Shown here one piece after another: positions 4,487 through 46,971 of a stretch of 64,000 nucleotides of DNA. A program made the translations under genes and the position numbers. Source of the stretch: Chamaesiphon sp. GTDB lineage: Bacteria; Cyanobacteriota; Cyanobacteriia; Cyanobacteriales; Chamaesiphonaceae. The notes beneath the pieces are model-generated. The model did not search any database, was not told the DNA's origin, and was given only the letters and a program-made list of their open reading frames with translations. The first letter of the stretch is position 1. Every line of letters starts with the position of its first letter. The stretch is taken from assembly GCA_965246715.1 (NCBI GenBank), contig CBDFFH010000027.1, positions 32,001 through 96,000 of the forward strand, in the 5' to 3' direction.

Positions 4487-6064
4487 TTACTGTTGCCGAT
4501 TTTCGCCTAACATCACAGCCGCGATCGCAGCACTGGCAACTGCTAATCCCGCCGCAATCCACATCACCCAACGGAAACCATCGACAAATGCCAGCGCGAT
4601 CGCCGACCGCAGTGCGGCACTTGCATTAATACTCAAGCCTGGAGGCACTGCTGCCGCCGCTAAGTTGATGCGCTGGGTATCGAGAAATTGTCGGGCTGGT
4701 ACGGACAGATCGAGTGAGATAATGCTGCGATCTAAGCTGGCGTTGAAAATATTGGCGACGATAATGCCCAAAACCGCGATCGCCACCAAACCAGCAATGC
4801 GGGAAACGGCGTTATTAATGCCCGAAGCTGCGCCTGCATAGCGCACTTCCACAGCCGCCATCACAGTGGTGGTCAGCGGTGCCACACAGATCGCCATCCC
4901 CAAACCCAGCACGATGACTGCCGGAAAAAATGTCGTCCAATAGCTGCCGCCGATGCTCGGTACACTCATCAAAGCCAGTCCCACCGCCGCAATCGTCGGG
5001 CCGACAACGAGCGGTTTTCTGGCACCATAGCGATCGACCAACCCACCAGACCATCGCGACAGCAAAAACATCAAAATTGGAAACGGCACCAGTGCTGCAC
5101 CCGCCGCTGTCGGCGAGTAGTGCTGCACTTGAATTAAATTAAATGGCAGAAAAAATAACGCTCCCGCCAGTGCCGCATACAGCAAGAGCGTGAGCAGATT
5201 GGCACCGCTGAAGGTGCGAGAACGAAATAATTGCAACGGCACCATCGGTGCTGCCAGATGGGATTCGATCGTTATAAATGCACCCAAACAGATCGTACCG
5301 AGGGCGATCGCACTCCAGACTCGGAAATTGCCAAAGCCCTGGCTGGAGGATTCAATCAGTCCGTACACCACGCCGCCCAAACCAACTACTGCTAATACTG
5401 CGCCTACCCAATCCAGTTTTGAAGATGCCTCTGGGTTGCGGCTTTCTGGTACCTGCCATAGACTCACAGCCAGCACGATCGCCGCTAACGGCACATTAAT
5501 GAAAAATAGCCAGTGCCAAGAAGCATGTTCGATTAACCAGCCGCCGAGTACTGGCCCAATCGCGGAGGTCATCGCTGTAAAGCCAGACCAAACCCCAATC
5601 GCCCTACCGCGTCGCTCTGGTGGAAACGCCGCGCTAATAATTGCCAAACTGCCAGGAATGAGTAAAGCACCACCGATACCTTGTAACGATCGCGCCCAAA
5701 TCAGTTGCTGCACATTGGGCGATAACCCGCACCAGACGGATGCTAGGGTGAATAAGCTTACCCCGATCGTGAAGATCCGCCGCCGTCCAAAGCGATCGCC
5801 CAAAGCACCACCAACGAGAATTAAGGCAGCGACAAACAGCGCGTAGGACTCGACCACCCACTGGACATCAGTAGCTGTCGCGCCAAGTTCGGTTTGGAGA
5901 GTGGGCAGGGCAACATTGACGATCGTGCTATCGATCGAAGCCATACTAGAGCCGAGAATTGTAGCGACCAAGACCCATACCTGGGCACTGGGAGCGCAAG
6001 GGGTCACACAAGGTTGAGAGCGGATCGCACCTTCATCGCAAGGCTGTTTGATGATGTTGGTCAT
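4487..6064 (-). CDS. MFS transporter, DHA2 (EmrB/QacA-like)
   Basis: DSTIVNVALP, GALGDRFGRRR, WLFFINVP; many hydrophobic segments. Confidence 0.9.
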   Translation of the reverse strand: MTNIIKQPCDEGAIRSQPCVTPCAPSAQVWVLVATILGSSMASIDSTIVNVALPTLQTELGATATDVQWVVESYALFVAALILVGGALGDRFGRRRIFTIGVSLFTLASVWCGLSPNVQQLIWARSLQGIGGALLIPGSLAIISAAFPPERRGRAIGVWSGFTAMTSAIGPVLGGWLIEHASWHWLFFINVPLAAIVLAVSLWQVPESRNPEASSKLDWVGAVLAVVGLGGVVYGLIESSSQGFGNFRVWSAIALGTICLGAFITIESHLAAPMVPLQLFRSRTFSGANLLTLLLYAALAGALFFLPFNLIQVQHYSPTAAGAALVPFPILMFLLSRWSGGLVDRYGARKPLVVGPTIAAVGLALMSVPSIGGSYWTTFFPAVIVLGLGMAICVAPLTTTVMAAVEVRYAGAASGINNAVSRIAGLVAIAVLGIIVANIFNASLDRSIISLDLSVPARQFLDTQRINLAAAAVPPGLSINASAALRSAIALAFVDGFRWVMWIAAGLAVASAAIAAVMLGENRQQ

Positions 6065-6324
6065 TAGATAAAGGTTTTATCGACATAGCACCATTGCCAA
6101 TCTTCATCTGGCTCGATCGATCTCACAATGGGATGTTCGCTAGTGTGAAAGTGTTTGGTGGCATGTTTATTCTTGGACGAATCACAACAAGCGACGTGTC
6201 CGCAAGTTAGGCACTCGCGCAGATGTACCCAAGTGTCGCCCATTGCGAGACATTCTTCGCAGCCATTGGTGCTGCTGGGTGTGACTTGACGAATTTGGTC
6301 GAGATGGGTGCAAGGTGTACTCAT
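6064..6324 (-). CDS. Stand-alone UBP-type zinc finger protein
   Basis: CTH..CEEC..WVHLRECLTCGHVACCDSS..HATKHF..H; start MSTPCTHL; stop overlaps MFS start. Confidence 0.85.
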   Translation of the reverse strand: MSTPCTHLDQIRQVTPSSTNGCEECLAMGDTWVHLRECLTCGHVACCDSSKNKHATKHFHTSEHPIVRSIEPDEDWQWCYVDKTFI

Positions 6325-6490
6325 TGATGTTTGCTCCACATAAATTAAGTCGATTGGCAATACCGATCGCCATGTCATACTTCAAATTATAACTAGCCAC
6401 CTATCGATCTCAGGAATTCAGCCCCGTCGCACCCACAACCCAAGCAGATCGGTCTCAAAGTAATCTATTCGCAAATAATTGTGGTAAATT

Positions 6491-6946
6491 TTACCCTTCG
6501 ATGCGATCGACCACACTCAAGCAGGTTTGAGTCAAATCTAGTACGTGCCGAATGGCTAAAGCTCGATCGGTGTCTGAATACTTACCAATGGTAAGGCGCA
6601 GTTCATTTGCAAATAAACCGTAGATTGCGCCAAGACTTTGAAATACTTTGGGAGTCGCAGCTACCAAGATACCGCGTCTGTCATTGGGATCGCGCATCCG
6701 CTCGACTAATCCCTTTATTTCCAAGCGATCGATGAGTGCAGTAACGCTACCAGTGGTCAAGTCCAGAGCTGTGGCGATATAAGTCGGCGTAACCGAACCA
6801 TGTTCGAGCAAATTGAGGCAGCGTAGATCGTTGCGAGCGATAGCAAGACTGTTAGCCGCTGCATGGTCTAGCCGATCGATTGCCGAGTGCAATTGACGGC
6901 AAGCCGCAACAATATCTACACCATCCTCAACGATCTGCTCTTCCAT
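6491..6946 (-). CDS. MarR family regulator
   Basis: GSVTALIDRLE..GLVER..DPNDRR. Confidence 0.9.
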   Translation of the reverse strand: MEEQIVEDGVDIVAACRQLHSAIDRLDHAAANSLAIARNDLRCLNLLEHGSVTPTYIATALDLTTGSVTALIDRLEIKGLVERMRDPNDRRGILVAATPKVFQSLGAIYGLFANELRLTIGKYSDTDRALAIRHVLDLTQTCLSVVDRIEG

Positions 6947-7082
6947 AGTAAATTCCTAAATCGTAGCTCAAAAGACATCGCGAATCGCAGACTCAATATT
7001 AGCTTGATTGACAAGTTACTTGATTATTTATATTCTAGATGAACGAGGTTTATCATGCAACTCATCATTTAAGGAATCAGTC

Positions 7083-7655
7083 ATGGAGCTATTAACCATT
7101 ATCTTAGGCATTGCAGTAGCGATCGCCGTTGTTGTTTTTCTCACTCCCAAGTTTGTTAAGTACACAGAAGAAATTACGATCGATGCTGCTGCTTCACAAG
7201 TTTACGACCATATTCGGTTCCAAAAAGACTTGATGCGCTGGTCGGCTTGGCCGAGCGTAACTGGATCGACCTGTGAATGCCAGCAGGAAGATGGTGGCGT
7301 TGGTGCTCAAACAGTGTTTTTTGGCAAAGACGGCAAACGGAGCGGACATCAGGAAGTCACTGCGATATCTGAAAATAAAAGTGTCGATTTTGAACTCTTC
7401 GGTGGTGGTCCGCCTCACAAAGCTAAGATGCAGTTTGAATTGATACCGATAAACGCGACGCGCACAAAAGTGCTATTGCACTTCAATAACGAGATTATGC
7501 CTCCTTTCAATCTGATACTCAGACTTGTTGGCGTTGTGAGTTGGACGCGTAAAATGCACCAAAAAGATTTAGATGGTCTAAAAAGATTTTCAGAACCACC
7601 GTTCCAAACTTACACTGGGCAACCTGTATCAATTTCTGGTACGACTCGATCGTGA
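7083..7655 (+). CDS. SRPBCC/polyketide cyclase-like protein with N-terminal membrane anchor
   Basis: Hydrophobic N-terminus, ITIDA..VY, WSAW, DLDGLK; divergent from marR. Confidence 0.7.
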   Translation: MELLTIILGIAVAIAVVVFLTPKFVKYTEEITIDAAASQVYDHIRFQKDLMRWSAWPSVTGSTCECQQEDGGVGAQTVFFGKDGKRSGHQEVTAISENKSVDFELFGGGPPHKAKMQFELIPINATRTKVLLHFNNEIMPPFNLILRLVGVVSWTRKMHQKDLDGLKRFSEPPFQTYTGQPVSISGTTRS

Positions 7656-7850
7656 GTATTTACCGAATCCCACGTCGCACCTATAACCCAAGCAGATCGA
7701 TCGGTTTAGTCTGGCGAACGGGACAGGATAACGATACGGTGAAAGCTTTCTGTACATTTGCTGCCAGTCATCATTGGTAACGCGATCGAGTCAATAAATA
7801 ATTATTGAAACTCGATCGGTTGATTGATGGCATCCAGAAAATTGTCAGAT

Positions 7851-8597
7851 TCAGAGTTGACCGATCCCACCATCGACGGCAATTTCAGCACCCAAAATAT
7901 AAGCGGAATCTGACGTACTTAGAAACAAGACTGCTTTGGCAATTTCTTCAGGAGTACCAAATCGTTTCATCGGGATTTGAGCGATGAATTTCTGTGCATT
8001 TGCTTCGAGAGCTGCTGGAGATAAACCAGTTCGACTGTGAAAAGGGGTGGCGATCGCACCTGGACTAACCGTATTCACGCGGATACCTCGATCGATTAGC
8101 TCCGCAGCAAATGTTCTAGCTAGCGATCTTACTGCTGCTTTACTGGCTGATACAACGCTGGTACCTGGAAGACCGAGACTACCGATAAAAGAAGTATTGA
8201 GGACAATGACAGCATTGTCATTAAGATGCGTTAGAGCCTTTTGAACTGTGAAATAGAGTCCTTTGAGATTGATTGAAAAGACTTCATCATAGATTGCTTC
8301 AGTCGTATCTGTTAGTGATGTAAATCTGCCAATCCCAGCATTTGCAAACAAGACATCGATTTTACCCACCTTTTCAGCGATCGAGTGGTAAAGTCGATCG
8401 ATCTGTTCCAGATTTGCGACATCTGTTTGCAGTGCTAATACATCTCCACCAATTGTTGAAGCTGCGTTATTGAGAGTATCGAGATCGCGTCCAACAATAA
8501 TAACCTTAGCCCCTTCTTGGCTAAATAGTTTCGCAGTTGCTAATCCAATCCCACTATTTCCACCTGTCACCAGCGCAACTTTTCCAGCTAATTTCAT
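7851..8597 (-). CDS. SDR oxidoreductase
   Basis: TGGNSGIG, ANAG, SVVSASK (catalytic Tyr position is Val). Confidence 0.9.
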   Translation of the reverse strand: MKLAGKVALVTGGNSGIGLATAKLFSQEGAKVIIVGRDLDTLNNAASTIGGDVLALQTDVANLEQIDRLYHSIAEKVGKIDVLFANAGIGRFTSLTDTTEAIYDEVFSINLKGLYFTVQKALTHLNDNAVIVLNTSFIGSLGLPGTSVVSASKAAVRSLARTFAAELIDRGIRVNTVSPGAIATPFHSRTGLSPAALEANAQKFIAQIPMKRFGTPEEIAKAVLFLSTSDSAYILGAEIAVDGGIGQL

Positions 8598-8733
8598 AAG
8601 ATTTCCTCTAGTATTTGTCTCGATCGAACATTTCTCAATCAAAGCACGATCTACCTCCCAAATGGAAGTATTTACCAAAAAGTGCGATACTTACCAAATA
8701 GTGAAAATAGTTAATTTACAAGGCTTTAGAAGC

Positions 8734-9144
8734 ATGAATAGCACGACGCTCCAACAGGCAAGACAGGCTCTCAACCAAAAACAGGTGTTTAATTCCACCT
8801 GTGTAGTCCCGCGCGTCCTCGACCATATTGGTAGTAAGTGGGCTATTTTGATTATTTACGCGCTCTCGCAGGGTACGAAGCGATATAGCCAGCTCCAGCG
8901 GCAAATTGAAGGTGTATCGCCAAAAATGTTGATTCAAAATTTGCGGAAGCTGGAAGCTTGTGGTTTGGTCGGACGGATCGTGCATCCAGTCGTGCCGCCA
9001 CAAGTGGATTATTTCTTAACTCCGCTGGGTGAAACGTTAGTCGATCCATTGGCAATGCTTTATGAGTGGGCTGAAAATCATATCCATGAATTCAACCAAA
9101 CTAATGCAAAGGACGAGAGTAATCTTACTCCCCTATCTTCTTAA
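8734..9144 (+). CDS. HxlR family regulator
   Basis: IGSKW, SPKML, VPPQVDYFLT. Confidence 0.9.
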   Translation: MNSTTLQQARQALNQKQVFNSTCVVPRVLDHIGSKWAILIIYALSQGTKRYSQLQRQIEGVSPKMLIQNLRKLEACGLVGRIVHPVVPPQVDYFLTPLGETLVDPLAMLYEWAENHIHEFNQTNAKDESNLTPLSS

Positions 9145-9217
9145 ACAAATCGAAACTGGCGGATAATAAATACAATGAATTCTCGATCGTGGCATCTCTT
9201 GTTGCCAGCGATCGATC

Positions 9218-9994
9218 TCAGGAATTACGTCCCGCCATCACACCACCATCCACATTCCAGGTCGCACCTGTAACCCACGCAGATCGATCGGACAGTAAGA
9301 ACGCGATCGTCTCTGCCACATCAACGGGTTGCCCGATCCGTCCGATGGGATGAAAATTATTGAAGCCCTGTAAGGTAGTGTGGATATCTTCTGGCTGGAT
9401 AAACGCTCCATAAATTGGCGTTTCGACGACAGCAGGAGCCACAGCATTGACCCGAATTTGGTACTGAGCCAGTTCCATTGCTAAGTGCTGGGTGAGCGAG
9501 TGTAAACCTGCCTTCGCCATCGAGTAAGCTGAGGATGGAGTCGCGAGTATCGCTTGATGTGCCCACATCGATCCCACATTGACAATCGCACCGCCATGTT
9601 GCTGTTGCACCATATTCCGCACGACCTGCTGTGTAGCAAAAAAGGTGCCATGATTGAGATTGAGATAGCGATCGTAGTCGGCTTCTGAGTGTTCGAGAAA
9701 TGACTTGGGTTGAAAAACACCCGCAGTATTGACGAGATAGCGAACATGCGGGAGTTCGGCTGCAATACGATCGATTAGTCGAGACGTATCTTGACGATCG
9801 CTGATATCTACTTGCCAGATATGGATCTTACCGCGATCTTCGAGATCGGCTGCTGTGGCTTGAAGTTCGTCGAGATTGCGTCCGACGATCGTGACGTTCG
9901 CCCCCTGCGCGAGTAAAATTTCGACAACCGATCGTCCGATCCCACCGCTACCACCGATAATGAGAGCTTGTTGCTGCTTAAATTCTGAGTACAT
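9218..9994 (-). CDS. SDR oxidoreductase
   Basis: GGSGGIG, YSMAK, VDGG. Confidence 0.9.
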
Positions 9995-10142
9995 GATAAT
10001 TTCCTGGTTGAGAAGATCGATCTTGATGGCAGCAGTATCATAATCAACTCAGATAGATTAGAAAAGTAAGCACTTTCCGGTGAGGTACGCACTTTTTGGT
10101 AGCAATTAAGGTAGGAAGCGAACAAAATTTTGAGTTGGACAA

Positions 10143-10538
10143 ATGGATATTGTAAAGCTAGATAAAGCACCTTCAGCAGCAGCAATGGTGGAGTATATCG
10201 TCGGTTGTAAGTGGTCGATTCGCATTTTGACCTCGATCCGTCAAGGGGTGGATCGCCCTGGTGCCATCACGAGATCGATCGATGGACTGACGACTAAAGT
10301 TCAGGGAGATTGCTTGAGCAAAATGGTGGGGTTTGGGATTTTGAAAAGGATCGCTTACGGAGAGATTCCGCCACGAGTGGAGTACAAACTCACCAATTTT
10401 GGGCAACGTTTCATCTCGATTTTGGATGCAGTCGCACAATTACAGCAAGAGATCGATGCTGCCAGTCAGCAGCCGAGTGAGGAAATGGGAGCGGTTGAAT
10501 TCGATTCTCAGCCGTCTTCAAACACTTACTCTCGATAG
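10143..10538 (+). CDS. HxlR family regulator
   Basis: VGCKW, PPRVEYKLT. Confidence 0.85.
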   Translation: MDIVKLDKAPSAAAMVEYIVGCKWSIRILTSIRQGVDRPGAITRSIDGLTTKVQGDCLSKMVGFGILKRIAYGEIPPRVEYKLTNFGQRFISILDAVAQLQQEIDAASQQPSEEMGAVEFDSQPSSNTYSR

Positions 10539-10639
10539 TTCGATCGAGAACTCGAACTAAAATTGTAGCTACTCGCTCGAATGATAGATACGCCATGCAG
10601 CGATCTAACTTAGTTCTCCGACCAAATCCCATCAATTCG

Positions 10640-10690
10640 CTAGTTACCAATCTCAATTAGAATCCCATTCAGGTCGCGCATATATGCTAA
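10640..10690 (-). pseudogene. 3' remnant of a VOC/glyoxalase gene
   Basis: Reads LAYMRDLNGILIEIGN*, paralogous to VAYVRDVDGILIEIGN of the 11642 gene. Confidence 0.75.
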
Positions 10691-10691
10691 C

Positions 10692-11582
10692 CTATCGATC
10701 GGCTGTGAGGAGCGGTCGGAAGACATCCTCAGACCATTGCTTGAATGTTGTTGTAGTACTTGTCTCGGCGGTGCGAGGTTCGGCATCATAGATCCCCTCA
10801 GCGACTTCGGCAAACAGATCCACTAGACTCTGTGCAAAAGCTGGACTACAGCCATTCGTCAGCATCGATCGGTAATAAGCTTCCGCAGAAATAGGTTGAA
10901 AGCGCACGGGTTTAACGAGCACTTCACTCAAAATTGTCGCTACTCGATCGAGTGATAGATCCTCTGCACCATGCACCCCAACGCCGCTTTGTCCCCACCA
11001 ATCTAGATCGAGTAACCACTTGAGAGCCACAGCAGCGATATCTTGAGTACACACCATTGGGATTGGCAAGTCAGCAGGAAAGGGATAAAAATATAATCCC
11101 TGTTGGGAAATTGGTTTCAATTGCCATAAAAAGTTCTCCATGAAGTTGCCACATCGTAAATATTTGATGTTGGCACCAGTCAGATCGAGCAGTTCTTCCA
11201 TTGCATGAAGTGCCGAAATTGCACCTGCATTTTGAGCGTGTCCTTTGCCACCGCTGGATATTGCTACTATGCGCGGTGGTAATTCTATTCGCTCGATCGC
11301 AGTACAAAGAGCTTGAGTAAAATTTAAGTAATATTTTAGAACATTATCCTGAGTATGGCTTTGGGGAATACACCAGAATAGTGACTCTAAACCATTAAGT
11401 GCTGGCGATAGCACATTGGGATCGGCAATAGATCCTTGAATTATCTCGATCTTATTTGCTACATCGGGGTCGATTTTGTCAGGATAACGAGCAATAACCC
11501 GCACAGATCGATCTGCATTTACGACCGACCTCAAGACATGGCGACCGATATTTCCAGTGGGCGTTGTAATTAGAATAGTCAT
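10692..11582 (-). CDS. NmrA-like NAD(P)-binding protein
   Basis: TPTGNIG, LRCGNFMEN. Confidence 0.8.
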   Translation of the reverse strand: MTILITTPTGNIGRHVLRSVVNADRSVRVIARYPDKIDPDVANKIEIIQGSIADPNVLSPALNGLESLFWCIPQSHTQDNVLKYYLNFTQALCTAIERIELPPRIVAISSGGKGHAQNAGAISALHAMEELLDLTGANIKYLRCGNFMENFLWQLKPISQQGLYFYPFPADLPIPMVCTQDIAAVALKWLLDLDWWGQSGVGVHGAEDLSLDRVATILSEVLVKPVRFQPISAEAYYRSMLTNGCSPAFAQSLVDLFAEVAEGIYDAEPRTAETSTTTTFKQWSEDVFRPLLTADR

Positions 11583-11641
11583 GAACTTTTAAGAGCAATA
11601 TTTGTACCGATTGGAGTTAGCTATGCACTCAAAAATTCTGA

Positions 11642-12031
11642 TTACCAGGATGAATTGCCAATTTCAATCAGAATGCCATCCACATCTCGAACGTATGCCA
11701 CCGTCTGTCCCCAAGGTTTAACTACAGGCTCTGCATAAACAGTCGCCCCAGCAGCGATCGCAGTTGCAAAAGCTGCGATTACATCATCAGTGACAAAACA
11801 AATGGCAATTCCGGCAGGTAAATTAGAGAGGCTGTGCTCTTGAAACCCTTGGGAAAGACCATATTTTACAGCTTCACTCGCAGCAAAATGAAGTGTACTT
11901 TCACCCGTTTCTAGCTCGGCAAATAAGCCATTTTCATGAACAAAACGTTGCTGGAAACCAAACGCTTGCTCGTATAAAGCGATCGCTTTGGGAACGTCTT
12001 TGACAAACAAAGTTGGATGAGAGAATTTCAT
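11642..12031 (-). CDS. VOC/glyoxalase family protein
   Basis: KPWGQTVAYVRD..GILIE. Confidence 0.9.
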   Translation of the reverse strand: MKFSHPTLFVKDVPKAIALYEQAFGFQQRFVHENGLFAELETGESTLHFAASEAVKYGLSQGFQEHSLSNLPAGIAICFVTDDVIAAFATAIAAGATVYAEPVVKPWGQTVAYVRDVDGILIEIGNSSW

Positions 12032-12129
12032 GGCTGCTACCGATTTGAGAACGTTTGTACGATATCACGATCGATGATGGATGTAGAATAGCTAAAAGTC
12101 CGCATTTCATAACCGATCGTCCAGAAGTA

Positions 12130-13071
12130 ATGTTAATTCCTGACGCACTTACCGATGCGCTCCAGACGCTCCGACTACAAAACACTCACTCTGGCTATTT
12201 CAAGTTCACATCACCGTGGGGCGTGAGAATTCCCAACGATAACGATCGAGAAGTGGCGTATCACATTGTGATGAAGGGGGAATGCTGGCTGCTGATGGAT
12301 GGTACAGCCATTCACTTAACAAGTGGCGATCTAGTCATCTTGCTCGAACGAGTCGAACATATTATTTGCGATCGAGTATCTAGTCCAGTAGCTAATCTCG
12401 ACGAGGTGATTAGGATCGAGCCAAATCAGGGCTATAACCAGATTTCTTATGGTGGCGATGGCATTGCCGCAGAGCTGGTGTCTGGATGTTTCGAGCTATT
12501 GGGCGACCGCGATCGCAATCCGCTCCTCTTGGCACTACCACCGCTAATCCATATCAAAAATGAGCGGTCGTTGTTGGTGCCTTGGCTGGAGCAGACATTA
12601 CAATTTATCGCCGCTGAAATTGCGATCGGGCAACTTGGTTGTCAAACAGTCGTGGCGCGGCTGATGGATGTATTATTCATTCAAGCCGTTCGCGCCTATG
12701 TGAATGGATTAGCTCACGAACAAGGTAACTGGCTATCAGCATTAGTCGATCGAGAAATTGGCACTGCTTTATCCCTAATTCATCGCACTCCCGAATATCC
12801 TTGGACGGTTGCAGATTTAGCCGACAAGATTCCGATGTCTCGCTCGGCATTTGCCGCGCGATTTACCCAGTTAGTCGGACAGCCACCACTGCAATATTTA
12901 ACCAACTGGCGGATGGTTAAAGGTGCGGGTTTATTGCGGGATAGTCAGTTAGGACTGCGAGAGATCGGACTGCAAGTCGGTTATGAATCGGAAGTATCTT
13001 TTAGTAGAGCCTTTAAACGCTGGGCGGGTATTGCTCCTAGTTTTTATCGACAGCAGCAATCTGTATCCTAA
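12130..13071 (+). CDS. AraC family regulator (cupin sensor, RclR-like)
   Basis: PWTVADLA..MSRSAFAARF, VGYESE..FSRAFKR. Confidence 0.9.
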   Translation: MLIPDALTDALQTLRLQNTHSGYFKFTSPWGVRIPNDNDREVAYHIVMKGECWLLMDGTAIHLTSGDLVILLERVEHIICDRVSSPVANLDEVIRIEPNQGYNQISYGGDGIAAELVSGCFELLGDRDRNPLLLALPPLIHIKNERSLLVPWLEQTLQFIAAEIAIGQLGCQTVVARLMDVLFIQAVRAYVNGLAHEQGNWLSALVDREIGTALSLIHRTPEYPWTVADLADKIPMSRSAFAARFTQLVGQPPLQYLTNWRMVKGAGLLRDSQLGLREIGLQVGYESEVSFSRAFKRWAGIAPSFYRQQQSVS

Positions 13072-13304
13072 ATCTCCCGCTCGTTTTTGCTCGTGGGTAT
13101 TGCCACGAGCAAACATAGACGGAGATCGATTCCCTAGCTAACTAGCGTTGAGACAAGGCTCCAACTCCAATAAAATAAGCAGAAGCCACCGCACCTAATA
13201 GATACAACAACCAAGTCAGGAAAAACCCCATAGTACGATCGCTCGATCGTCCGCATCAATCCTTGATTTAAAAAGATCGAACTTTTAATGAATATCTATC
13301 AAGG

Positions 13305-13375
13305 ATCGATCGAATTGCAATCGATAACCTGCTTTCAGGCGATGCCAATACGCGATCGATTGCAATTCGATCGAT
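13305..13375. repeat. Perfect 21-bp inverted repeat with 29-nt loop
   Basis: ATCGATCGAATTGCAATCGAT (13305-13325)/(13355-13375); part of the element recurs at 27939-27964. Confidence 0.7.
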
Positions 13376-13402
13376 AAACTATTAGCAATCTTTACGGCTG
13401 GA

Positions 13403-14275: not shown

Positions 14276-14388
14276 CCTGTCGATCTAATGTCCTTACTAG
14301 TTTTGTCAGATTCTCGTCGGTGCAACTGCCTCAATACCATAATTTTTTAAGTAACCAAGACGAAAAGATCCACATTAAGAGCGATAAG

Positions 14389-14787: not shown

Positions 14788-14829
14788 GAGAATATCCTCT
14801 TTAAATTACAAAAAATTGAAGTTCGATCG

Positions 14830-34680: not shown

Positions 34681-34701
34681 ATCCCAAACGTGCAGACATA
34701 G

Positions 34702-37654: not shown

Positions 37655-37801
37655 AGGAAGAAAAAACGTTCGGATTTCCCTATTATAAAAGATCGCAATC
37701 GAATTATTTGAGTCGATCGATTAAAATATCCCCCCAAGGCATTAGCAATAATGCCCACTCTACAAGGGTTATTGTGTGGTGTGCAACGGCTCTATAAATC
37801 T

Positions 37802-38641: not shown

Positions 38642-38795
38642 TGGATGTCTTTTACAACTGCAATTTAACCTAACGCCAACTCAATTTTACTCCGAGCGCA
38701 ACGGCTTTACCAGTGAGCTAGAGATTCAATTTTGGTGGCGATAGATTCGGGAGACGAGAAGATCTTGGATCGAATTGTGCTGGATTGAGATCGAA

Positions 38796-40361
38796 TTAGT
38801 TCAGTCGAGCGATCAGAATATTGCCCACCCGCAACGCATTAGCAATAATCGTCAATGTCGGATTGACAGCCGAACTGGAGGGGAAGAAACTCCCATCCAC
38901 CACATAGAGATTATCCACATCGTGAGTGCGACAATTCAAATCTAGAACTGAAGTGGTGGGATCTGTCCCAAAGGTACAGGTACCGCACTGATGCCCTACC
39001 GATGGCAGCGTCATCGTATTGCGCGGATAGATACTAAAGGGAATTATCTGCTCCGCTCGATCGACTTGTTTGAGCGTGTCAATCCAGCGTTTCGTCAACC
39101 GATCGCTTGCCGCTAAATTATTCGGCGTATAGTCGAGATAGAGCCGATCTCCAGCTACGCGCACCCGATTGGCAAGATCGGGTAAATCTTCAGTTTGCAG
39201 CCACCAGCCGACAGTGCGATCGGCAACAGTCTTGAGTTCTGCTTCTGGGCGCAGTTTGAGCAGGGGAGCTAGGAGGGCGGGGGCTTCGGCTGGTAGCATC
39301 GCGGCGAGGACATTGCCTGTATTTTGAATCAATCCCATCGGATAGGGAAAGTCGGGTTCTCCCCAATAAAAATCGCTGATACAAATGGTTTTTTGATAGA
39401 CAGCAGGATTGAGTTTAGGACTGAGTTGTACCAAGGCAGTGCAGACGTGTTTCATCAGATTGCGTCCCACTCGATCGGAACTATTTGCCAAGCCGTTGGG
39501 ATGTTTGTCATTGCTCGATCGGAGTAGTAATGCTGCTGAGTTAATTGCTCCACAAGCAACTACGATAATATCGCCTGTAAAGGTTTGCACTTCGCCGTGA
39601 ATCTCTGCTTCGACTTGGGTTACTTCGCGTCCTGAAGGACTGGTATGCAGGCGGGTGACTCTAGCTTCAGTTATCAAAGTCACATTCCTATTGTGGCGAA
39701 TTGGCTCGATACAATTGACATCGGCATCAGCTTTACCCTGTGTCAAACAGGGAAAGCCATCGCAGGTATTGCAACGAATGCAATTGCCCAAGCTTTTATC
39801 GACTTCGTTAAGTTTCAAGCCCAATGGCAGATTGAAAGGATTCAAACCCGCATTACTCAACCCATCTGCCAGCTCTTGCATCCGAGGTTCGTGACTGACT
39901 GGGGGGTGGGGATAGGGGTGAGTGCGAGCGGGTTCGGTGGGGTCGCTACCCGCTTGTCCGTGGACATCATACAGTTGTTCCGCTCGATCGTAATAAGGGG
40001 CAAAATCGGCATATTTCAGCCCCCATGCTGGCGAAATTCCATCTTTGTGGGCGACTGCTTCAAAATCCCGTTCGCGCATACGGAGCAGGGCTGCACCGTA
40101 GACTTTGGTATTACCCCCTACCCAATAGTTTGTTGCGGGACGGAAGGCGCGATCGTGTGTGTCGAACCACTGTTCTGAGGTGTGATAGCGTTCGCGTTGA
40201 TAGACTTCGAGGGCACTCCAGTTTTCTTTTTCTCTGGGGAGGAAGGTGCCGCGTTCGAGGATTAAGATCTGTTTACCGCTGGGAGCGAGGTGATGCGCTA
40301 GGGTGCCGCCGCCTGCGCCTGTGCCGATAATGATGATGTCGTAATGAGTGTTGGTAGACAT
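38796..40361 (-). CDS. GMC family oxidoreductase
   Basis: GTGAGGG, VGGNTKVYG, HQCGT, NPTLT. Confidence 0.92.
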   Translation of the reverse strand: MSTNTHYDIIIIGTGAGGGTLAHHLAPSGKQILILERGTFLPREKENWSALEVYQRERYHTSEQWFDTHDRAFRPATNYWVGGNTKVYGAALLRMRERDFEAVAHKDGISPAWGLKYADFAPYYDRAEQLYDVHGQAGSDPTEPARTHPYPHPPVSHEPRMQELADGLSNAGLNPFNLPLGLKLNEVDKSLGNCIRCNTCDGFPCLTQGKADADVNCIEPIRHNRNVTLITEARVTRLHTSPSGREVTQVEAEIHGEVQTFTGDIIVVACGAINSAALLLRSSNDKHPNGLANSSDRVGRNLMKHVCTALVQLSPKLNPAVYQKTICISDFYWGEPDFPYPMGLIQNTGNVLAAMLPAEAPALLAPLLKLRPEAELKTVADRTVGWWLQTEDLPDLANRVRVAGDRLYLDYTPNNLAASDRLTKRWIDTLKQVDRAEQIIPFSIYPRNTMTLPSVGHQCGTCTFGTDPTTSVLDLNCRTHDVDNLYVVDGSFFPSSSAVNPTLTIIANALRVGNILIARLN

Positions 40362-40519
40362 TGATTTTTCTTGGAGATTATTAGGAAATTTACTGATTCA
40401 ATCGGTGTAACGTCTCGTTTTACCGACGATAGAAACCTCTGGTACTCGGTCGGCAGTTTCTATATAGTAAGTATGCAAGTAAGTTATTACGTTGAGATCG
40501 TTTACTTCGCTTGGGTTAT

Positions 40520-41020
40520 TTACCGAGTTCTTCGCCAAATCCAGACTTCACCATCATCTGGATCGATCTTACTCCCGTCTCTAACAAACTGATTCTTCTC
40601 CAAAACTCTCCAAGATGCTGAATTCAACGGAGTCGTACAAGCCACGATCGTTTGAATCTCAACATGGGAAAATCCCTCCCTAAGCAACAGATCGACAGCT
40701 TGAGTAGCAAATCCGCGTCTCTGTTGGGAAGGCACGATTCCATATCCAATTTCAACCGAACCGTTGATATCTGGAGGACTTTTAAAACCGCACATCCCCA
40801 CAATTAATCGATCGACTACAATCAATTGAGGCGACCACCAAAAACTATTTCTGGGGTCTTTGTTTAATCGATAGTTCACAAACTCTAACAAGAAACGGGG
40901 GGCAACCTCTTCATTATTAGGTAGCAATAATCCCTCTATTTCAGATGGTTCGGGTTGCGCTAGGAGTGCGGTCAGATCATTTTCTGTGGCTTGACGAAGA
41001 ATCAACATAAAATATTGCAA
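40520..41020 (-). CDS. RimJ/RimL-type GNAT
   Basis: EIGYGI..QRRGFA, ASWRVLEK. Confidence 0.85.
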   Translation of the reverse strand: MQYFMLILRQATENDLTALLAQPEPSEIEGLLLPNNEEVAPRFLLEFVNYRLNKDPRNSFWWSPQLIVVDRLIVGMCGFKSPPDINGSVEIGYGIVPSQQRRGFATQAVDLLLREGFSHVEIQTIVACTTPLNSASWRVLEKNQFVRDGSKIDPDDGEVWIWRRTR

Positions 41021-41050
41021 GAGAGTGCTTTACTGACTAATCCGAAGCGA

Positions 41051-41863
41051 TTACACGAGTCGATCGCTCAAATCCATCTTTCTATCTCGATCGAAATTAC
41101 ACCGAAAAATACAGCGTTTGTGGTTGTCGTGGTGTAATTTGGCGCACTTGACAGCCCGTTTACCAAATAGATAAGTATATAAACCTGCTGCTGACAACAT
41201 CCCGCTCGGTGGGACGATCGCATACAGCCAGAATGCCGTCCAAATTTGGGCAGGTAAGGCAGAAGCAAGGCTTCGTGCTGGATTCATCCCAAAGCCCGAT
41301 AAAGGGGCTTCTAGGGTGACGTAGAGGGCGACTAGGCATCCCGAAAATAGTCCGGTGTAGCGATTTAGTTTTTGGTGATTGCTGGTGAGTAACACCATCA
41401 TCATCATGATAAAGGCGATCGCCCATTCACCCAATAACGCACCACTCCAACCCAGGGCACCAGGTACCGTGACGATATAATCGATCGGTGGTTGGGTAAA
41501 TGCTTGCCCAAACACGATCGCAACTAGACAAACACCCACCCAGCCGCCTAAACATTGAAACAAGATATAAAATAACGCATCCTGGGTTTTAACTTTGCCC
41601 AGACGGTAGAAAGTCAGCGTCACGGCTGGGTTCATGTGGGCACCAGATTGTTTTCCCCAAGGCGAATAAATTAGAGCGATCGCGGTTGACCCCATCGCGA
41701 TGCCGATTAAAAATCTCCGCAGATCGCCGTTGGGAATATTGTGATGAATGAGCGAGTCGGGATACTCAAACACGAGCGTCATTACCCCCGCCACAATCAT
41801 GAATAGCCCCAGCATGGCTGCTTCCATCAGGTATTCTGGCAAGTGGTTTCTAAAGTTTTCCAT
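41051..41863 (-). CDS. MIP/aquaporin family channel with Cys/His-rich tail
   Basis: [26 protein letters not shown]; start overlaps the glycosidase stop. Confidence 0.9.
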
Positions 41864-44528
41864 CCCCTTCCGCCTCGGTGCGATGTCTGGCATTTTGGAA
41901 AATCAGGGTGGCGACTAAGCCCGTCCAACCTGTTTGGTGGCTGGCTCCAAGTCCGGCACCATTATCGCCATGAAAATATTCGTGAAACAAAATATAATCG
42001 CGCCAATGCGGATCGGTTTGGAATTTGGTAATCCCACCATAGACTGGACGGCGACCGGATTTATCTGGTTGAAATAGGGCGACTAACCGTTCGGATAGGG
42101 CGATCGCGACTTCTTTGAGCGTCATCTCAATTCCCGATCCGGTCGGACATTCGACCTTGAAATCGTCCCCGAAGTAGGTATGAAATTGCCACAGGGATTC
42201 AATAATCAGGTAGTTGACAGGGAACCAGATGGGACCGCGCCAGTTGGAATTACCGCCAAATAAATCCGTTGTGGATTCGGCTGGCTCGTAATGAATGTAA
42301 TAATCGTGACCGTCTAATTTGAGGCAGTAGGGATGGTCTTGATGGTACTTGGAGACGGCGCGAATCCCAAAGGGGCTAAAGAATTCATTTTCGTCCAGCA
42401 GGCGTTGGAGAATCCGCTGAAGCTTGCTGCGATAAGCGATCGCCAGCAATCGCCGCGCTCCCGTTCCTGGCGTTTCCATACAGGCGACATTATCTTTGAG
42501 ATCGTGGCGATTGCGAATGAACCAGTCCATCCGCCGCTTGAAGCCAGGGAATTTTTCTAGGGTTTCTAGTTCCAATACAGCGACAGCATACAGGGGAATC
42601 AATCCCACCATCGATCGCACTTTCAGCGGCAACTGTCGTCCATCGGGCAGGTTCAGTGCATCGTAGTAGAAGCCATCTTCCTCATCCCACAGGGCAATCT
42701 CGTCTTCGCCGATGCCATCGATCGCATCGGCAATATACAGGAAATGCTCGAAGAATTTACTGGCAATATCTTCATAAGCGTCATCCGCTTTCGCCAGCTC
42801 TAGGGCGATCCTGAGCATATTCAGGCAATACATCCCCATCCAACTAGTACCGTCTGCTTGATTGAGATAACCGCCAGTCGGCAACTCGGCACTGCGATCG
42901 AAGATCCCGATATTATCCAGCCCTAGAAATCCGCCCTGGAACACATTCTTACCGGAAATATCTTTGCGATTTACCCACCAGGTAAAGTTGAGCATCAACT
43001 TGTGAAACACCCGCTGGAGAAAGGCGCGATCGCCCTGTCCGCAAGACTTTTGCTCGATGAGATAGACCTGCAATGCCGCCCACGCTTGAACGGGGGGATT
43101 GACATCGCTAAATTTCCACTCGTAGGCTGGTAATTGACCGTTGGGGTGCATATACCATTCTCGCGTGAGCCGATCGAGTTGCAGCTTGGCAAAGTCAGGA
43201 TCGATCTGGGCTAAGGGAATCAGGTGGAAGCCCAGATCCCATGCCGCAAACCAGGGATACTCCCACTTATCGGGCATGGAAATAATATCTTCACTAAATA
43301 GATACGTCCATTCGTGATTCCGTCCGGTTTTCCGTTCCGCAGGTGGCGAAGGCTGGCCCGGATCGCCTTTAAGCCAGTCATGGACGCTGTACTGGTAATA
43401 TTGTTTGCTCCACAGCAATCCGGCAAAAGCTTGTCTTTGGATCTGGCGATCGTCCTCCGACATGGGGAATGGGCAAGCTGCTTGATAGAATTCGTCGGCT
43501 TCTTGTTTGCGGATTTGGAAAATACGATCGAATTCATCGCCAAACGGTTCTAAAATCTGAGATCGATCGCTCAATCGCAGTCGCACGGTTTTGGTCTCTC
43601 CAGGCGCAAATGAAAGCGAGTAATTGGCAGCAAATTTGGTACCGATGCGATCGGGATTTATCGCCTGTTTTTGTCCATTTACCACATAATTATTAATACC
43701 ATCTTTGAGATAGGGAGAACGATTTTCCGTCCCAAATAATCGATCGTAATTGGTTTCGTTATCGGTAAATAGCAATTCGGCTGCACCTTCACAATCTAGC
43801 CAGCGCGTTCCTAGTGAGGGATGATGCGTCTCAATCCGGCTGAGGATAGAATCTGAATTTACCACTTTCATCGTGGGTCGTTCCATTTCTGGGTTCCAAT
43901 CCCAGAGATTCCGAAACCAGAGGGTTGGGAGTAGCTGTAAAGTGCTAGCTTCATTACTCCGGTTGACGATCGTAATTTGAATCAGAATATCTTCTGGTGC
44001 CGCTTTAGCATATTCCACGAAGACATCAAAGTAGCGATCGTCGTTAAATATACCTGTATTCAGTAACTCAAACTCCGGCTCCAATCTACTGCGGCGGCGA
44101 TTTTCTTCAATTAACTGAGTATAGGGAAATGCCCGTTGAGGATACTTATACAGACACTTCATATAAGAATGCGTCGGCGTATTATCCAAATAAAAATAGT
44201 ACTCCTTGACATCCTCACCATGATTGCCTTCATTCCCCGTCAATCCAAACAGTCGCTCCTTCAAAATCGGATCGTTGCCATTCCACAATGCAATCGCAAA
44301 ACACAACCGTTGCCTGGTATCGGAAATTCCGGCAATCCCATCTTCACCCCAACGGTAGACCCGCGATCGCGCGTGGTCGTGGGGAAAGTAGTCCCAAGCC
44401 GACCCATCGCGGCTATAATCTTCGCGGACGGTGCCCCACTGGCGATCGCTCAGATATGACCCCCAACGTTTCCAATAAGCGACCCGCTCTCGATCTTGTG
44501 CTAGTCTCTGTTGCTCTTGAGTCATCAA
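41850..44528 (-). CDS. MGH1-like (GH63-related) glycoside hydrolase
   Basis: [32 protein letters not shown]. Confidence 0.9.
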
Positions 44529-44634
44529 ATTTTCTCCAGTACGGCTAACATCGATCGAGTCACGTAGCGATTGTCTTAAAAGTCAAGAAAAAACCGAGAT
44601 AATTAGATAATCAATGTAGCCTGAATCATTCACT

Positions 44635-44666
44635 GGTCAAAATGACAGGTTTAACCATGTTGGAGA
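44635..44666 (-). repeat. 32-bp exact copy of the REC-TrxB start region
   Basis: Identical to 32854-32885 (MVKPVILT). Confidence 0.85.
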
Positions 44667-44864
44667 ATGTACGTCAATGGATCGCTATAGAGTAGTTTAA
44701 CGCAAAAGAAATTTATCCCAAAACTACGTTTAGGTTTTCTCGATCTAATCACGACCAAACAGCATTAGTTCGCTCTCAATCGTGCTGATTGAGTTGACTT
44801 AAACGTAGATGGCGACCAGTGAGCAGCCTACTGACTGCTTTAAGCAGAAAATTCAATTTCAGGC

Positions 44865-44908
44865 TTGACAAACCTAATTAAGTTAACCTAAGCTAATTGA
44901 GTTAGCTT
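44865..44908 (+). promoter_or_regulatory. Sigma70-type promoter overlapping operator-like palindromes
   Basis: TTGACA-18-TAAGCT; AGCTAA-TTGAG-TTAGCT palindrome. Confidence 0.5.
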
Positions 44909-44934
44909 CTTAGTTGTCAATCAATATTTAGCTT

Positions 44935-45531
44935 ATGTCACGTCCTAGAGGACAAACACTCTCGCGAAAAGATGTGGTTAATGCTGCCATCCACTGTTTG
45001 CAACAAGATGGTGAGTCTGGTTTAGGTGTAAATCGAGTTGCTCATGAATTGGGAATTCGCCCTCCTTCGATGTACAAGCACATTGATGGTAATGAAGCAT
45101 TACGTCGTGCAGTAGCAATTGAAGGAATGCGTCGGTTGACCGATTATCTGAGTCATCAGGTGCAAGGTATCCAAGATCATCGGTCTCTCATTCGAGCGAT
45201 CGCTATCGGAATTCGCCAGTTTTTTCATCAGCATCCTGCTTTACATAGCGTGATTACCACAACCCCAGTTGATGACGATCCCGAATATGAATCAGCTAAA
45301 CAAGCTTTTCTCGCCTTCAATGGTGAATATTTACAACCTTTTGGAATACAAGGGGATGAAATCATTCACGCAATGCGATTGTTAGTTTCTACCTGTCATG
45401 GTTTTGTATTGTTGGAACGCTCAAGGCGATTTACTGCACCTCAATCCTTAGATGATAGTTATGAATGGTCGATCGACAGCTTAATTTTTGCGCTCGAACA
45501 TAGACAGCACGACGGATATGTAGAGCAATAA
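44935..45531 (+). CDS. TetR family regulator (WHG-type C-terminus)
   Basis: VAHELGIRPPSMYKH, CHGFVLLE. Confidence 0.9.
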   Translation: MSRPRGQTLSRKDVVNAAIHCLQQDGESGLGVNRVAHELGIRPPSMYKHIDGNEALRRAVAIEGMRRLTDYLSHQVQGIQDHRSLIRAIAIGIRQFFHQHPALHSVITTTPVDDDPEYESAKQAFLAFNGEYLQPFGIQGDEIIHAMRLLVSTCHGFVLLERSRRFTAPQSLDDSYEWSIDSLIFALEHRQHDGYVEQ

Positions 45532-45576
45532 CTGCCTCGCTTTATCAAAGATTGATGTTACTTTAGGAGTTCAAAC

Positions 45577-45996
45577 ATGGAAACACCTGCACGTTATCTT
45601 TTGTTTCACGCCTCAATTGTTCTCCTCATTGGATTACTGTGCGGCGTACCATACGGTCAGGCGATCGTGAATAAAAAGAGTGATGAAGTAATCAGGGCAT
45701 GGAAACTAGCGCATGGCGCATTATCGCTTGGCGCGACTACGATGATTGGAATGGCAGCGATTCTTTCATCTCTGCAAGTTGATACAGGCATTCAGTGGGC
45801 AATTGCAATCACATTTATTATTTCAGGTTATGGTTTCTGTATAGCCTTAACGATTGAGCCGTTTGTAGGGGATAGAGGTTTATCTTGGTCTGGGATATGG
45901 TCTAATAAAGTTGTCTTTATCGGCAATATTATTGGTGCTTTGAGTTCTTTGATTGGGACGTTGATAATAGTTTATGCCTCCTATGTATCTTTATAG
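45577..45996 (+). CDS. Small membrane protein, styrene-oxide isomerase (StyC)-like
   Basis: Four hydrophobic helices, WKLAH motif. Confidence 0.5.
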   Translation: METPARYLLFHASIVLLIGLLCGVPYGQAIVNKKSDEVIRAWKLAHGALSLGATTMIGMAAILSSLQVDTGIQWAIAITFIISGYGFCIALTIEPFVGDRGLSWSGIWSNKVVFIGNIIGALSSLIGTLIIVYASYVSL

Positions 45997-46011
45997 CAAG
46001 AAGTCCCAGTA

Positions 46012-46110
46012 GTGGCGTGACCGGACTAAAACTGTGAGCATTTAGATCCCTGAAAATACAATTATTATATTTCACGCGATCGTTATTACACACATTTTTA
46101 GTCCGGTCAT
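46012..46110. mobile_element. Second copy of the 1979-2083 MITE, opposite orientation
   Basis: TGACCGGACTAAAA IR; interior matches the reverse complement of 2006-2056. Confidence 0.75.
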
Positions 46111-46121
46111 ATTAGTGGCCA

Positions 46122-46161
46122 GTAGGGTGGGCAATGTCCACCAACTAGGTTTCAGGCATTC
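46122..46161 (+). repeat. GTAG-type REP-like repeat
   Basis: GTAGGGTGGGCAATGTCCACCAACTAGGTTTCAGGCATTC. Confidence 0.7.
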
Positions 46162-46203
46162 TTGCCTGTTCTATATATATTTTCACCGACCCACTTATCG
46201 CGG

Positions 46204-46971
46204 CTATTGCTCTTGGTAATTCCACAGCAATCCACCATCGACAACGAAGGTGGTACCAGTCACATAATCTGACTCCGAGCTAGCCAAAAATGCCACCATT
46301 GCCGCCACATCTTCCGGTTTTCCCAATCGCTTGAGCGGAATATTTTGGAGCAGGGCATTGAGTTTTTCGGGATCGTTTAATAACTTGGTATTGATTGGAG
46401 TTTCGATCGCGCCTGGAGCCACATTATTAATCGTAATTCCCAAAGGAGCAAGCTCGATCGCCAGATTGCGAGTCAGCATTTTCAAGCCACCCTTACTAGC
46501 GCAGTAAGCGGCAAAGTGCGGGAAAGGTAGCTCTTCATGTACCGAACTAATATTGATGACTTTGCCAGGTTGCTTGAGTGCCATCCGATGCTGGACGAAA
46601 GCTTGGATGGCAAAAAAGATCCCCTTGAGATTGACATTCATCACCGCATCATAATCGGCTTCAGTAACATCCCAGAAATCGGCATTCTTCTCAATCCCCG
46701 CATTATTGACCAAAATATCGAGCTGACCGAAATGAGCGATACTTTCTGATACCATCCGCTGGACATCGGCGATCTTACCCGTATCCGCTTGGACGATAAA
46801 ACCACCGCTGCCAGCCGCTTGCACCTTGGCGAGAGTCTCCGCTGCGCCTTCTGGGTGAGAACGATAGTCGATCGCAATTCTAGCTCCAGCTTCGGCTAGC
46901 CGAATGGCGATCGCTTGTCCGATCCCCTGACTGCTCCCCGTAACTAAGGCGACTTTTCCTGCCAGTTTCAT
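46204..46971 (-). CDS. gdh: Glucose 1-dehydrogenase-like SDR
   Basis: SSVHE..P.PHF..YCASKGG, PGAIETPIN. Confidence 0.75.
   Translation of the reverse strand: MKLAGKVALVTGSSQGIGQAIAIRLAEAGARIAIDYRSHPEGAAETLAKVQAAGSGGFIVQADTGKIADVQRMVSESIAHFGQLDILVNNAGIEKNADFWDVTEADYDAVMNVNLKGIFFAIQAFVQHRMALKQPGKVINISSVHEELPFPHFAAYCASKGGLKMLTRNLAIELAPLGITINNVAPGAIETPINTKLLNDPEKLNALLQNIPLKRLGKPEDVAAMVAFLASSESDYVTGTTFVVDGGLLWNYQEQ

Follow-up and report, generated by a model that had tools for sequence, protein, structure and literature searches.

Two separately conserved gene modules, likely dispersed by stacked accessory-gene insertions, in a Chamaesiphon genomic island

The 64,000-nucleotide window analyzed here (positions 32001-96000 of contig C27 in a 6.1-Mb Chamaesiphon genome) carries, between its positions 4487 and 46971, nine genes with predicted roles in sugar oxidation and redox signaling, all on the minus strand. 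From high to low coordinates these encode a glucose 1-dehydrogenase-like short-chain dehydrogenase/reductase (SDR; this one hereafter GDH, 46204-46971), a GH63-like two-domain glucosidase (41850-44519), an MIP channel (41051-41893) and a GMC flavoprotein of the FAD-glucose/fructose dehydrogenase type (38796-40361), which make up module A; then a soluble histidine kinase with a cNMP-fold input domain (kinase 1, 34702-36144), a flavoprotein with receiver, glutaredoxin-like and TrxB-like parts (REC-TrxB, 31195-32877), a second soluble histidine kinase with a cNMP-fold input domain (kinase 2, 20066-21448) and a stand-alone UBP-type zinc finger (zf-UBP, 6064-6324), which make up module B; and finally a DHA2/EmrB-family MFS transporter (4487-6064), a loose companion of module B. 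A Pfam scan of 69 open reading frames (ORFs) in the window verified all nine genes on the strand and in the order given by an earlier, sequence-only reading of this DNA, and each of the nine ORFs is intact. Together they fill 12.2 kb of the 42.5-kb span, with 36 further ORFs interspersed among them (27 minus-strand, 9 plus-strand), including GNATs, methyltransferases, SDRs, regulators, a P450 and a MazF-like gene. A promoter and terminator scan of 30000-48000 returned counts at the level of shuffled sequence (18 versus 24.7 promoters and 18 versus 16.9 terminators) and was uninformative on transcripts. We consider it likely that the stretch represents two separately conserved modules that were driven apart by repeated insertions of accessory genes, which left duplicated gene ends behind.

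Module A comprises candidate genes for glucose release and oxidation. The GDH (adh_short) finds the glucose 1-dehydrogenase 1RWB as its best PDB match (E 1.7e-63) and scores 276 bits against NCBIfam PRK08936, under the cut-off of 420. The glucosidase is 889 residues long, has an N-terminal beta domain and matches PF22422 and PF03200; a single-sequence PDB search with it gave no match, and by profile and fold it lies nearest to processing alpha-glucosidase I and YgjK, ahead of TTHA0978 (model pLDDT 60.7). It combines the beta-sandwich, (alpha/alpha)6 barrel and GH63 motifs that broadly define GH63 alpha-glucosidases, as judged on a low-confidence model with a TM of about 0.4. We also considered a single-domain GH63 glucosylglycerate/mannosylglycerate hydrolase of about 420-450 residues and rejected it on the length, the extra beta domain and the closer profile and fold of glucosidase I and YgjK. 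The MIP channel (PF00230) has two NPA motifs and a Cys/His-rich C-terminal tail encoded at 41051-41130, in which the pattern CAKLH...RCIFRC recurs in five of six close homologues; a second MIP lineage retains KLFH...YRCIF. The tail is possibly a metal or redox site.

The GMC flavoprotein bears on the claim of the sequence-only reading that solute or H2O2 flows through the MIP. Its best PDB match is 6A2U (E 4.4e-37), with a cysteine cluster inside the alignment, and FAD-glucose and fructose dehydrogenases lead its match list (E 1e-37 to 1e-26), while oxidases reach 4e-11 or weaker. Of 12 homologue rows, 9 contain the cysteine motif, CxxCxxC-x4-C; a single locus, fetched twice, accounts for two of the other three. 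We take this cluster to bind the iron-sulfur center in FAD-glucose dehydrogenase. The stronger dehydrogenase matches and the aligned cysteine cluster led us to reject an H2O2-producing GMC oxidase of the glucose or pyranose oxidase kind, and the protein looks like an iron-sulfur dehydrogenase rather than a source of H2O2. Since the GMC protein is nearest to iron-sulfur FAD-glucose dehydrogenase, H2O2 flux through the MIP is unsupported. As predicted from these family assignments, the GH63-like enzyme would free glucose from alpha-glucosides or glycogen fragments, the GDH would oxidize glucose to gluconolactone with a yield of NAD(P)H, the GMC protein would oxidize a sugar with electrons leaving through its Fe-S cluster, and the MIP would conduct water or a small neutral solute.

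The four genes of module A are contiguous in another genome (G075:C207) at 77-82% identity; GDH, GH63 and MIP are contiguous in a member of the same genus (G002:C452), and three of the four lie together in G042:C108. In a survey of 52 genomes, the GH63-GDH pair fell within 12 kb in 14 of 21 cases and the GDH-MIP pair in 10 of 12. The window's own genome (G000) has three more GH63 copies (68-70%), at C5:248-287 kb and C20:177-182 kb, which lie within or close to groups of GDH, MIP and GMC paralogues. A comparable cluster is known from Synechococcus elongatus PCC 7942, where adjacent genes for MIP, GMC, glucose 1-dehydrogenase and a probable glucosidase/debranching enzyme (Synpcc7942_1571-1575) are up-regulated in subjective night and have been proposed to form a glycogen-to-gluconate route (PMC11889915). 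Module A resembles this cluster in having the same four families side by side elsewhere, a likeness drawn by family and not by sequence orthology; unlike it, module A has a different gene order and no amylomaltase. PF22422 also matches in our S. elongatus control genome. The available part of the S. elongatus description names neither REC-TrxB nor a kinase (PMC11889915).

Module B centers on REC-TrxB, a protein of 560 residues assigned by domain, profile and alignment evidence. Its receiver, with acidic pocket, phosphoacceptor Asp, Thr and Lys, is intact and fused to the TrxB-like domain, and the motifs DDD, DQRMP, LLTAY and KPW are kept across a set of 95 distinct sequences that comprises the window's own and others from the loci fetched. 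Between the two lies a glutaredoxin-like domain (NCBIfam GlrX_actino, residues 144-217, under cut-off). The TrxB-like part, whose top Foldseek matches are TrxB and AhpF, retains GGGPAG, GGANSAG and GDV, the dinucleotide motifs for FAD and NAD(P)H, throughout the same 95 sequences. It thereby resembles low-Mr TrxB (TIGR01292; PDB 7JYP) and AhpF in its GxGxxG FAD motif, second dinucleotide motif and overall fold, but differs from both in carrying GAAQTEA-like residues in place of CxxC and WSPxS in the glutaredoxin-like domain. The TrxB CxxC position reads YYGAAQTEA in the window protein, CxxC is absent from the six commonest variants, which account for 87 of the 95 sequences, and the match to TIGR01292 (211.9 bits) falls under the cut-off of 343.45. 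Because both CxxC sites are absent, REC-TrxB cannot be a classical thioredoxin reductase.

The rest of module B comprises the two kinases and the zinc finger. Kinase 1 (PF00027, PF02518) and kinase 2 share 38% identity and have intact H, N and G boxes; the kinase 1 H-box reads AHELNNP in 12 of 12 close homologues, and kinase 2 has a 96% identical copy at C37. Cyclic AMP- and cyclic GMP-binding domains contain a phosphate-binding cassette with a conserved Arg. Both kinases match PF00027, yet in each the sequence varies across the cassette region and the Arg of the canonical motif is missing. The zinc finger (PF02148) has eight Cys invariant in 21 sequences, and the MFS transporter scores 311 bits against TIGR00711 (cut-off 230). 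Module B is predicted to be a kinase pair that switches a cysteine-less flavoprotein: the soluble kinases would phosphorylate the REC aspartate and so gate an NAD(P)H:flavin reaction.

Flanks of at most 10 kb, often cut short, were examined at 80 REC-TrxB loci: 45 contain a related kinase, 18 contain the zinc finger and one the MFS transporter; the transporter is also present in two of the plasmid regions discussed below. L014 has kinase 1, REC-TrxB and kinase 2 in one uninterrupted run, and in L013 and L018 kinase 2 adjoins the zinc finger. The kinase also adjoins REC-TrxB in Streptomyces, Tsukamurella, Caballeronia and Deinococcus, and the Streptomyces fungicidicus homologue, 55% identical, is followed by the kinase and then the UBP zinc finger. 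Of 121 Acidobacteriota genomes drawn, 13 had a REC-TrxB match; in the 12 loci taken from 11 of the matching genomes (a center genome and one unpublished genome were left out), a kinase adjoined REC-TrxB in all 12 and the zinc finger in one. The closest relative of the window's REC-TrxB is that of Chamaesiphon polymorphus (94%). A 131-residue glyoxalase-like gene lies near REC-TrxB in 24 of the 80 loci (L012-L091); toxin-antitoxin genes do so as well, Phd in 18 loci and PIN in 13, often between REC-TrxB and the kinase.

Proteins of this type have been catalogued before, as a TrxB-type response regulator with its kinase, for example Streptomyces coelicolor SCO7298/SCO7297 (PMC9739842), and as "Mycobacterium-like REC + thioredoxin reductase" (PMC5847659). 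Compared by description rather than alignment, REC-TrxB shares with SCO7298 a receiver fused to a thioredoxin-reductase-like domain with a kinase alongside; it differs in having two kinases and a cyanobacterial sugar-gene neighborhood. In the parts of the literature available, published data on the family concern expression, under acid shock (PMC2631018) and with sulfane sulfur (PMC9952706), and the available part of PMC9025218 does not mention REC-TrxB under the terms searched. A literature search covering few subscription papers and no supplements turned up no study of what REC-TrxB does or of how it might be coupled to sugar genes. The sequence-only reading had stated that no functional description of the system was known, which holds for the coupling and for the chemistry of module B and fails for module A, as a cluster of its four families has been described (PMC11889915).

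The spaces between these genes contain partial copies of gene ends, here called scars, all of them on the minus strand. At 32882-32983 a kinase 2 end is joined to a zinc finger start and fused onto the start of REC-TrxB: 32934-32983 matches the kinase 2 end (20068-20117) at 46 of 50 positions and 32882-32935 the zinc finger start (6301-6354) at 51 of 54, which bears out what the sequence-only reading had seen at 32881-32985. The same junction occurs between whole genes in L013 and L018. A joint of 6352 to 20068 in sequencing runs X1-X3 was considered as an empty-site allele and set aside, as both the 32882-32983 scar and C37:16048-16116 share the joined form. The second scar involving REC-TrxB, 44625-44682, consists of the native upstream region and the first 24 nucleotides of REC-TrxB. 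Within it, 44635-44666 is identical to 32854-32885 (32/32), confirming the copy of the REC-TrxB start that the sequence-only reading had seen, and the whole matches the C. polymorphus REC-TrxB upstream and start at 86% over 58 nucleotides. A contig from run X2 joins 32881 to 44676; run X1 may be the source sample, and run X2 comes from the same study. Given that the scar runs into native-like upstream DNA, and given the X2 joint, REC-TrxB is separated from its old upstream region by the block that runs from the glucosidase to the kinase-end scar, and the REC-TrxB start scar marks a recombination junction between the modules. Adjacent to the first scar, 32994-33254 is what remains, after internal deletion, of a gene found almost complete at C36:171974-172546, which looks like a Uma2-family nuclease. 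In C36 this gene is joined to nucleotide 25 of REC-TrxB, exactly where the window scar stops.

Self-comparison of the window revealed further copies, absent from the sequence-only reading, most of them of 3' ends. The GMC 3' end recurs at 37698-37752, after a methyltransferase gene (49/60 to 38790-38849), at 36898-36953, after the MazF-like gene (47/56 to 38802-38857), and as a 19-nucleotide stub at 36135-36153 overlapping the kinase 1 start (18/19 to 38836-38854); three GMC-end copies of this kind are found in the paralogous island at C36. The REC-TrxB 3' end is copied at 30259-30308 after an APH-family gene (41/50 to 31206-31254). An SDR gene at 9218-9994 has two such copies, one at 7667-7704 (34/38 to 9254-9291) and one at 6396-6454, which ends in an 11-nucleotide GATCGATAGGT common to the NmrA end at 10690-10700; C37 does not have the 4.3 kb between 6399 and 10690. 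A start-copy scar of the NmrA gene 49001-49912, pairing 49893-49961 with 52428-52495, brackets DUF5996, pirin and GST genes. Between GDH and glucosidase, a TetR regulator and a 139-residue protein (44935-45996, plus strand) form an insert with the 6-nucleotide TAGCCG at both ends of the gap, and the flanking pair adjoins in G002:C452. The GDH-GH63 site is empty in G002, and REC-TrxB stands on its native upstream region in C. polymorphus and the X2 contig. A run X1 contig carries an MIP-end copy, not in the window, behind the GNAT gene 40520-41020. A GDH-to-GMC joint in the run contigs was discarded as probably a paralogue on C5. Before the zinc finger, 6353-6361 is a weak remnant of a kinase end; the sequence-only reading had placed one at 6345-6360, and its position and a paralogous copy at C37:31466-31546 make this plausible, but the match is 9/9 nucleotides and not significant alone.

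The island has a second copy in the same genome, at C36:161-175 kb and C37:1-45 kb. Identity in the blocks they share is about 82-100%; the second copy carries other inserts at the corresponding sites and a broken REC-TrxB. Some blocks, up to 1.6 kb long, match at 100% (window 10690-16314 versus C37:24231-31257), suggesting recent exchange between them.

To place the scars in a wider context, we searched the terminal sequences of 5153 crudely called genes against their own contigs. Intergenic copies within 40 kb gave 545 candidates, and 154 were left after removal of those with more than eight genome copies, 115 of them direct and 39 inverted. Among the direct copies, 79 had the polarity expected if the host gene stays whole (an end copy downstream or a start copy upstream) and 36 did not. 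Restricting the set to genes of at least 130 residues gave 77 rows, and dropping low-complexity, very short, very long and identical rows left 60, of which 46 were polar and lay on 24 contigs. The median insert was 1.7 kb and the repeat about 98 nucleotides at 87% identity; scars ranged from 28 to 296 nucleotides at dozens of unrelated genes and had no common core. Apparent housekeeping genes were among those scarred, which from their N-termini we take to be DNA polymerase I, aconitase, glutamate synthase, sulfite reductase and ComEC. At five such sites, compared in five relatives each, flanking content varied with other cargo, and no clean empty site stood out. Behind the aconitase-like gene the spacing is 8.6 kb here, against 2.3, 1.7 and 3.2 kb in three relatives (G009, G003 and G020, respectively), and for the glutamate-synthase-like gene, G015 shows an end copy of its own. 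A scar search in 2.24 Mb of loci from other genomes returned mostly simple repeats and one clear copy of a REC-TrxB start (L091); lacking a copy-number filter, its counts are not comparable with the genome-wide count.

Collectively, the scars are likely footprints of accessory genes being inserted. The sequence-only reading had taken them as links between the parts of one system, which was not borne out: they are a genome-wide by-product of insertion and therefore mark junctions, not shared function. The pattern fits insertions with long target duplication, which comprise inserts under 20 kb between imperfect direct repeats of more than 30 bp and variable length, lack mobile-element genes and are known chiefly from species with natural competence, one of the reported cases being in Microcystis (PMC2853133); in related work, 10-18% of variable segments were flanked by repeats (PMC2884548). 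The scars here are likewise direct repeats of more than 30 bp around inserts under 20 kb, and no mobile-element genes were found among the 69 window ORFs scanned by Pfam. Unlike the described cases, the cargo does not consist of restriction-modification genes, and the events are numerous, stacked at one gene end, polarized to gene termini and enriched for CGATCG at the inner junction.

The last of these features is suggestive of a mechanism. The genome contains 4.6 CGATCG per kb with TCGATCGA dominant, in line with the reported Chamaesiphon pattern of HIP1, a sequence (GCGATCGC) that, together with its CGATCG core, has been tied to site-specific recombination and methylation-dependent transformation (PMC4390886, PMC13756078). 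At the inner junction, CGATCG occurs in 11 of the 46 polar rows, where a matched null built on those gene termini expects 2.4 (p 5e-5); at the outer end it occurs in 3. In the 14 non-polar rows it is found 3 times at one end and once at the other. The apparent CGATCG bias at insertion scars is new: our literature search, which covered few subscription papers, found no report of CGATCG at natural insertion junctions, and the HIP1 literature rests on laboratory assays and phylogenetic correlation (PMC4390886, PMC13756078), whereas the present data concern natural junctions. In our main account of the scars, incoming DNA from a relative would have recombined homologously within the host gene and formed a non-homologous joint 30-250 nucleotides inside the gene end, often at CGATCG, which likely favors such insertion; the host gene would stay whole with its old end left behind the new cargo. 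A wider reading, which we judge rather unlikely, is that Chamaesiphon gains accessory genes genome-wide by one-sided homologous capture with the non-homologous joint preferentially at CGATCG, the methylated HIP1 core. If this is true, the duplicated gene ends would be a fossil record of the natural role of the HIP1 palindrome, and CGATCG would offer landing points at which foreign genes are added while the host gene survives. What HIP1 does has been a question for three decades (PMC13756078), and a natural junction bias would be directly testable in Chamaesiphon strain pairs and in transformable model strains.

We then asked how modules A and B relate in other genomes, using REC-TrxB, GH63 and GMC as queries against 54 genomes, and MIP and GDH as queries against the 52 of them that have REC-TrxB. 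Within 30 kb of REC-TrxB on one contig, GH63 was found in 8 of the 42 genomes with both genes (0.68 expected), GDH in 7 of 23 (0.31 expected) and MIP in 2 of 12 (0.11 expected); GMC was not enriched (1 of 33 genomes, 0.71 expected). Every link was on the same strand. These counts are given without a p-value, since the genomes were selected by REC-TrxB likeness and are related. The full nine-gene set and order occurred in no other genome examined, and the closest module A and module B orthologues were never found linked, lying on separate contigs in G042 and G075. DUF5996, pirin and inward-rectifier channel genes recur beside module A or B elsewhere (L013, L017 and C20 of this genome). The link between the modules is thus real, loose and mainly cyanobacterial, and this measured association of REC-TrxB with sugar genes is new, providing a first concrete lead on the possible role of a widespread system in cyanobacteria.

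Several points weigh against our account of the stretch. Some of the 46 polar rows are probably paralogue remnants and not insertion scars, gene calls came from a simple ORF finder and junction positions from BLAST ends, and at the REC-TrxB start a tandem duplication followed by replacement also fits both scars. The contrast of CGATCG between inner and outer ends reaches only p 0.039 by Fisher test and falls to 7 versus 2 of 38 for repeats of at least 45 nucleotides, and 35 of the 46 inner junctions do not carry CGATCG. The linkage counts are non-independent, the eight GH63-linked genomes being mostly heterocystous cyanobacteria plus one acidobacterium, and fragmented contigs conceal links. 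With these points weighed, the locus is best described as two known modules, loosely associated in cyanobacteria and likely dispersed by stacked insertions; without the HIP1 junction bias or the sugar-gene lead, it is an ordinary accessory island.

A possible but rather doubtful alternative is that modules A and B form one functional system in cyanobacteria, with no fixed operon and no H2O2, in which glucan breakdown at night or during desiccation (GlgX, AGE-family epimerase, GH63 and GDH) would yield NAD(P)H that the kinase-gated flavoprotein spends or senses. Two Nostoc plasmids among seven plasmid regions inspected speak for it: that of Nostoc sp. C052 reads MIP-GDH-glucosidase-GlgX-AGE-REC/TrxB-kinase-LtrA on one strand, and that of N. 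edaphicum clusters the same families. GlgX-AGE also lies upstream of REC-TrxB in Gloeothece and G039 and precedes it in 6 of the 10 second-copy loci (upstream DNA is shorter than 600 nucleotides in two of these). In a FastTree phylogeny of 93 REC-TrxB rows, from which L014 and L015 were dropped by the ORF filter and duplicate loci omitted, the sugar-linked copies were scattered over several separate branches, as this alternative would have it, but the flanks of the six other rows in the window's clade, several of them short, held no sugar gene. Sugar genes were likewise found in none of the 12 Acidobacteriota loci and none of the four non-cyanobacterial plasmid regions. The linked sugar genes moreover vary by case and often belong to other paralogue lineages (MIP 33-37% identical), and common residence in accessory stress islands accounts for loose linkage without coupling. 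A conserved string of GlgX, AGE-epimerase, REC-TrxB and kinase marks a second cyanobacterial lineage (L008, L125 and L128-L140), and the AGE-epimerase of L008 carries a STAS domain. This lineage suits testing of the sugar link better than the window does.

We judge it very unlikely that a cassette system, site-specific or REP/HUH-driven, uses the scars as attachment sites, with an integron-like array at the GMC 3' end. The GMC-end copies do begin within about 10 nucleotides of one another in both islands, several are preceded by a GTAG-type hairpin, and the cargo consists of single small genes, toxin-antitoxin pairs included. Re-duplication of one old junction also explains the aligned starts, however, and the scars' spread over unrelated genes on 24 contigs, variable length and missing core do not fit such a system. 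The scan of 69 window ORFs detected no recombinase domain, and the closest integrase that was found lies about 64 kb outside the window. An integron cassette array proper was rejected, as the window has no integrase and the repeats copy many different gene ends and not one attC family. The GTAG-type repeats, which we take to be a REP-like family, occur at window positions 277, 516, 2083, 37763 and 46122, several of them abutting scar junctions, and their 10-nucleotide pattern has 163 matches genome-wide.

One ancestral nine-gene operon in this exact order, coupling glycoside oxidation and H2O2 flux to the kinases as the sequence-only reading had proposed, is highly improbable, for although the genes share strand and order and every adjacent pair but GMC-kinase 1 is contiguous or nearly so somewhere, the set recurs in no other genome examined, GMC is not enriched near REC-TrxB, the REC-TrxB start scar lies inside the DNA separating the GDH-GH63 pair, the GMC protein is of the Fe-S dehydrogenase type, and a common minus strand means little when 27 of the 36 intervening ORFs share it. 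What survives of the ancestral system is that each half is contiguous elsewhere and that in cyanobacteria sugar genes lie near REC-TrxB far above chance; the refuting condition attached to that proposal, an absence of synteny in other genomes, thus does not apply.

Outside the nine genes, the 523-residue ORF at 534-2105 has no Pfam or NCBIfam match and is flanked on both sides by GTAG-type repeats (at 277 and 2083). A prolyl oligopeptidase (S9) gene at 2186-4358 is spread over two overlapping frames, reflecting a frameshift or an assembly error. A SnoaL-like gene is present twice, at 14382-14749 and 47986-48353, with 90% identity between the copies, and the second copy overlaps a truncated alcohol-dehydrogenase gene (48322-48894).

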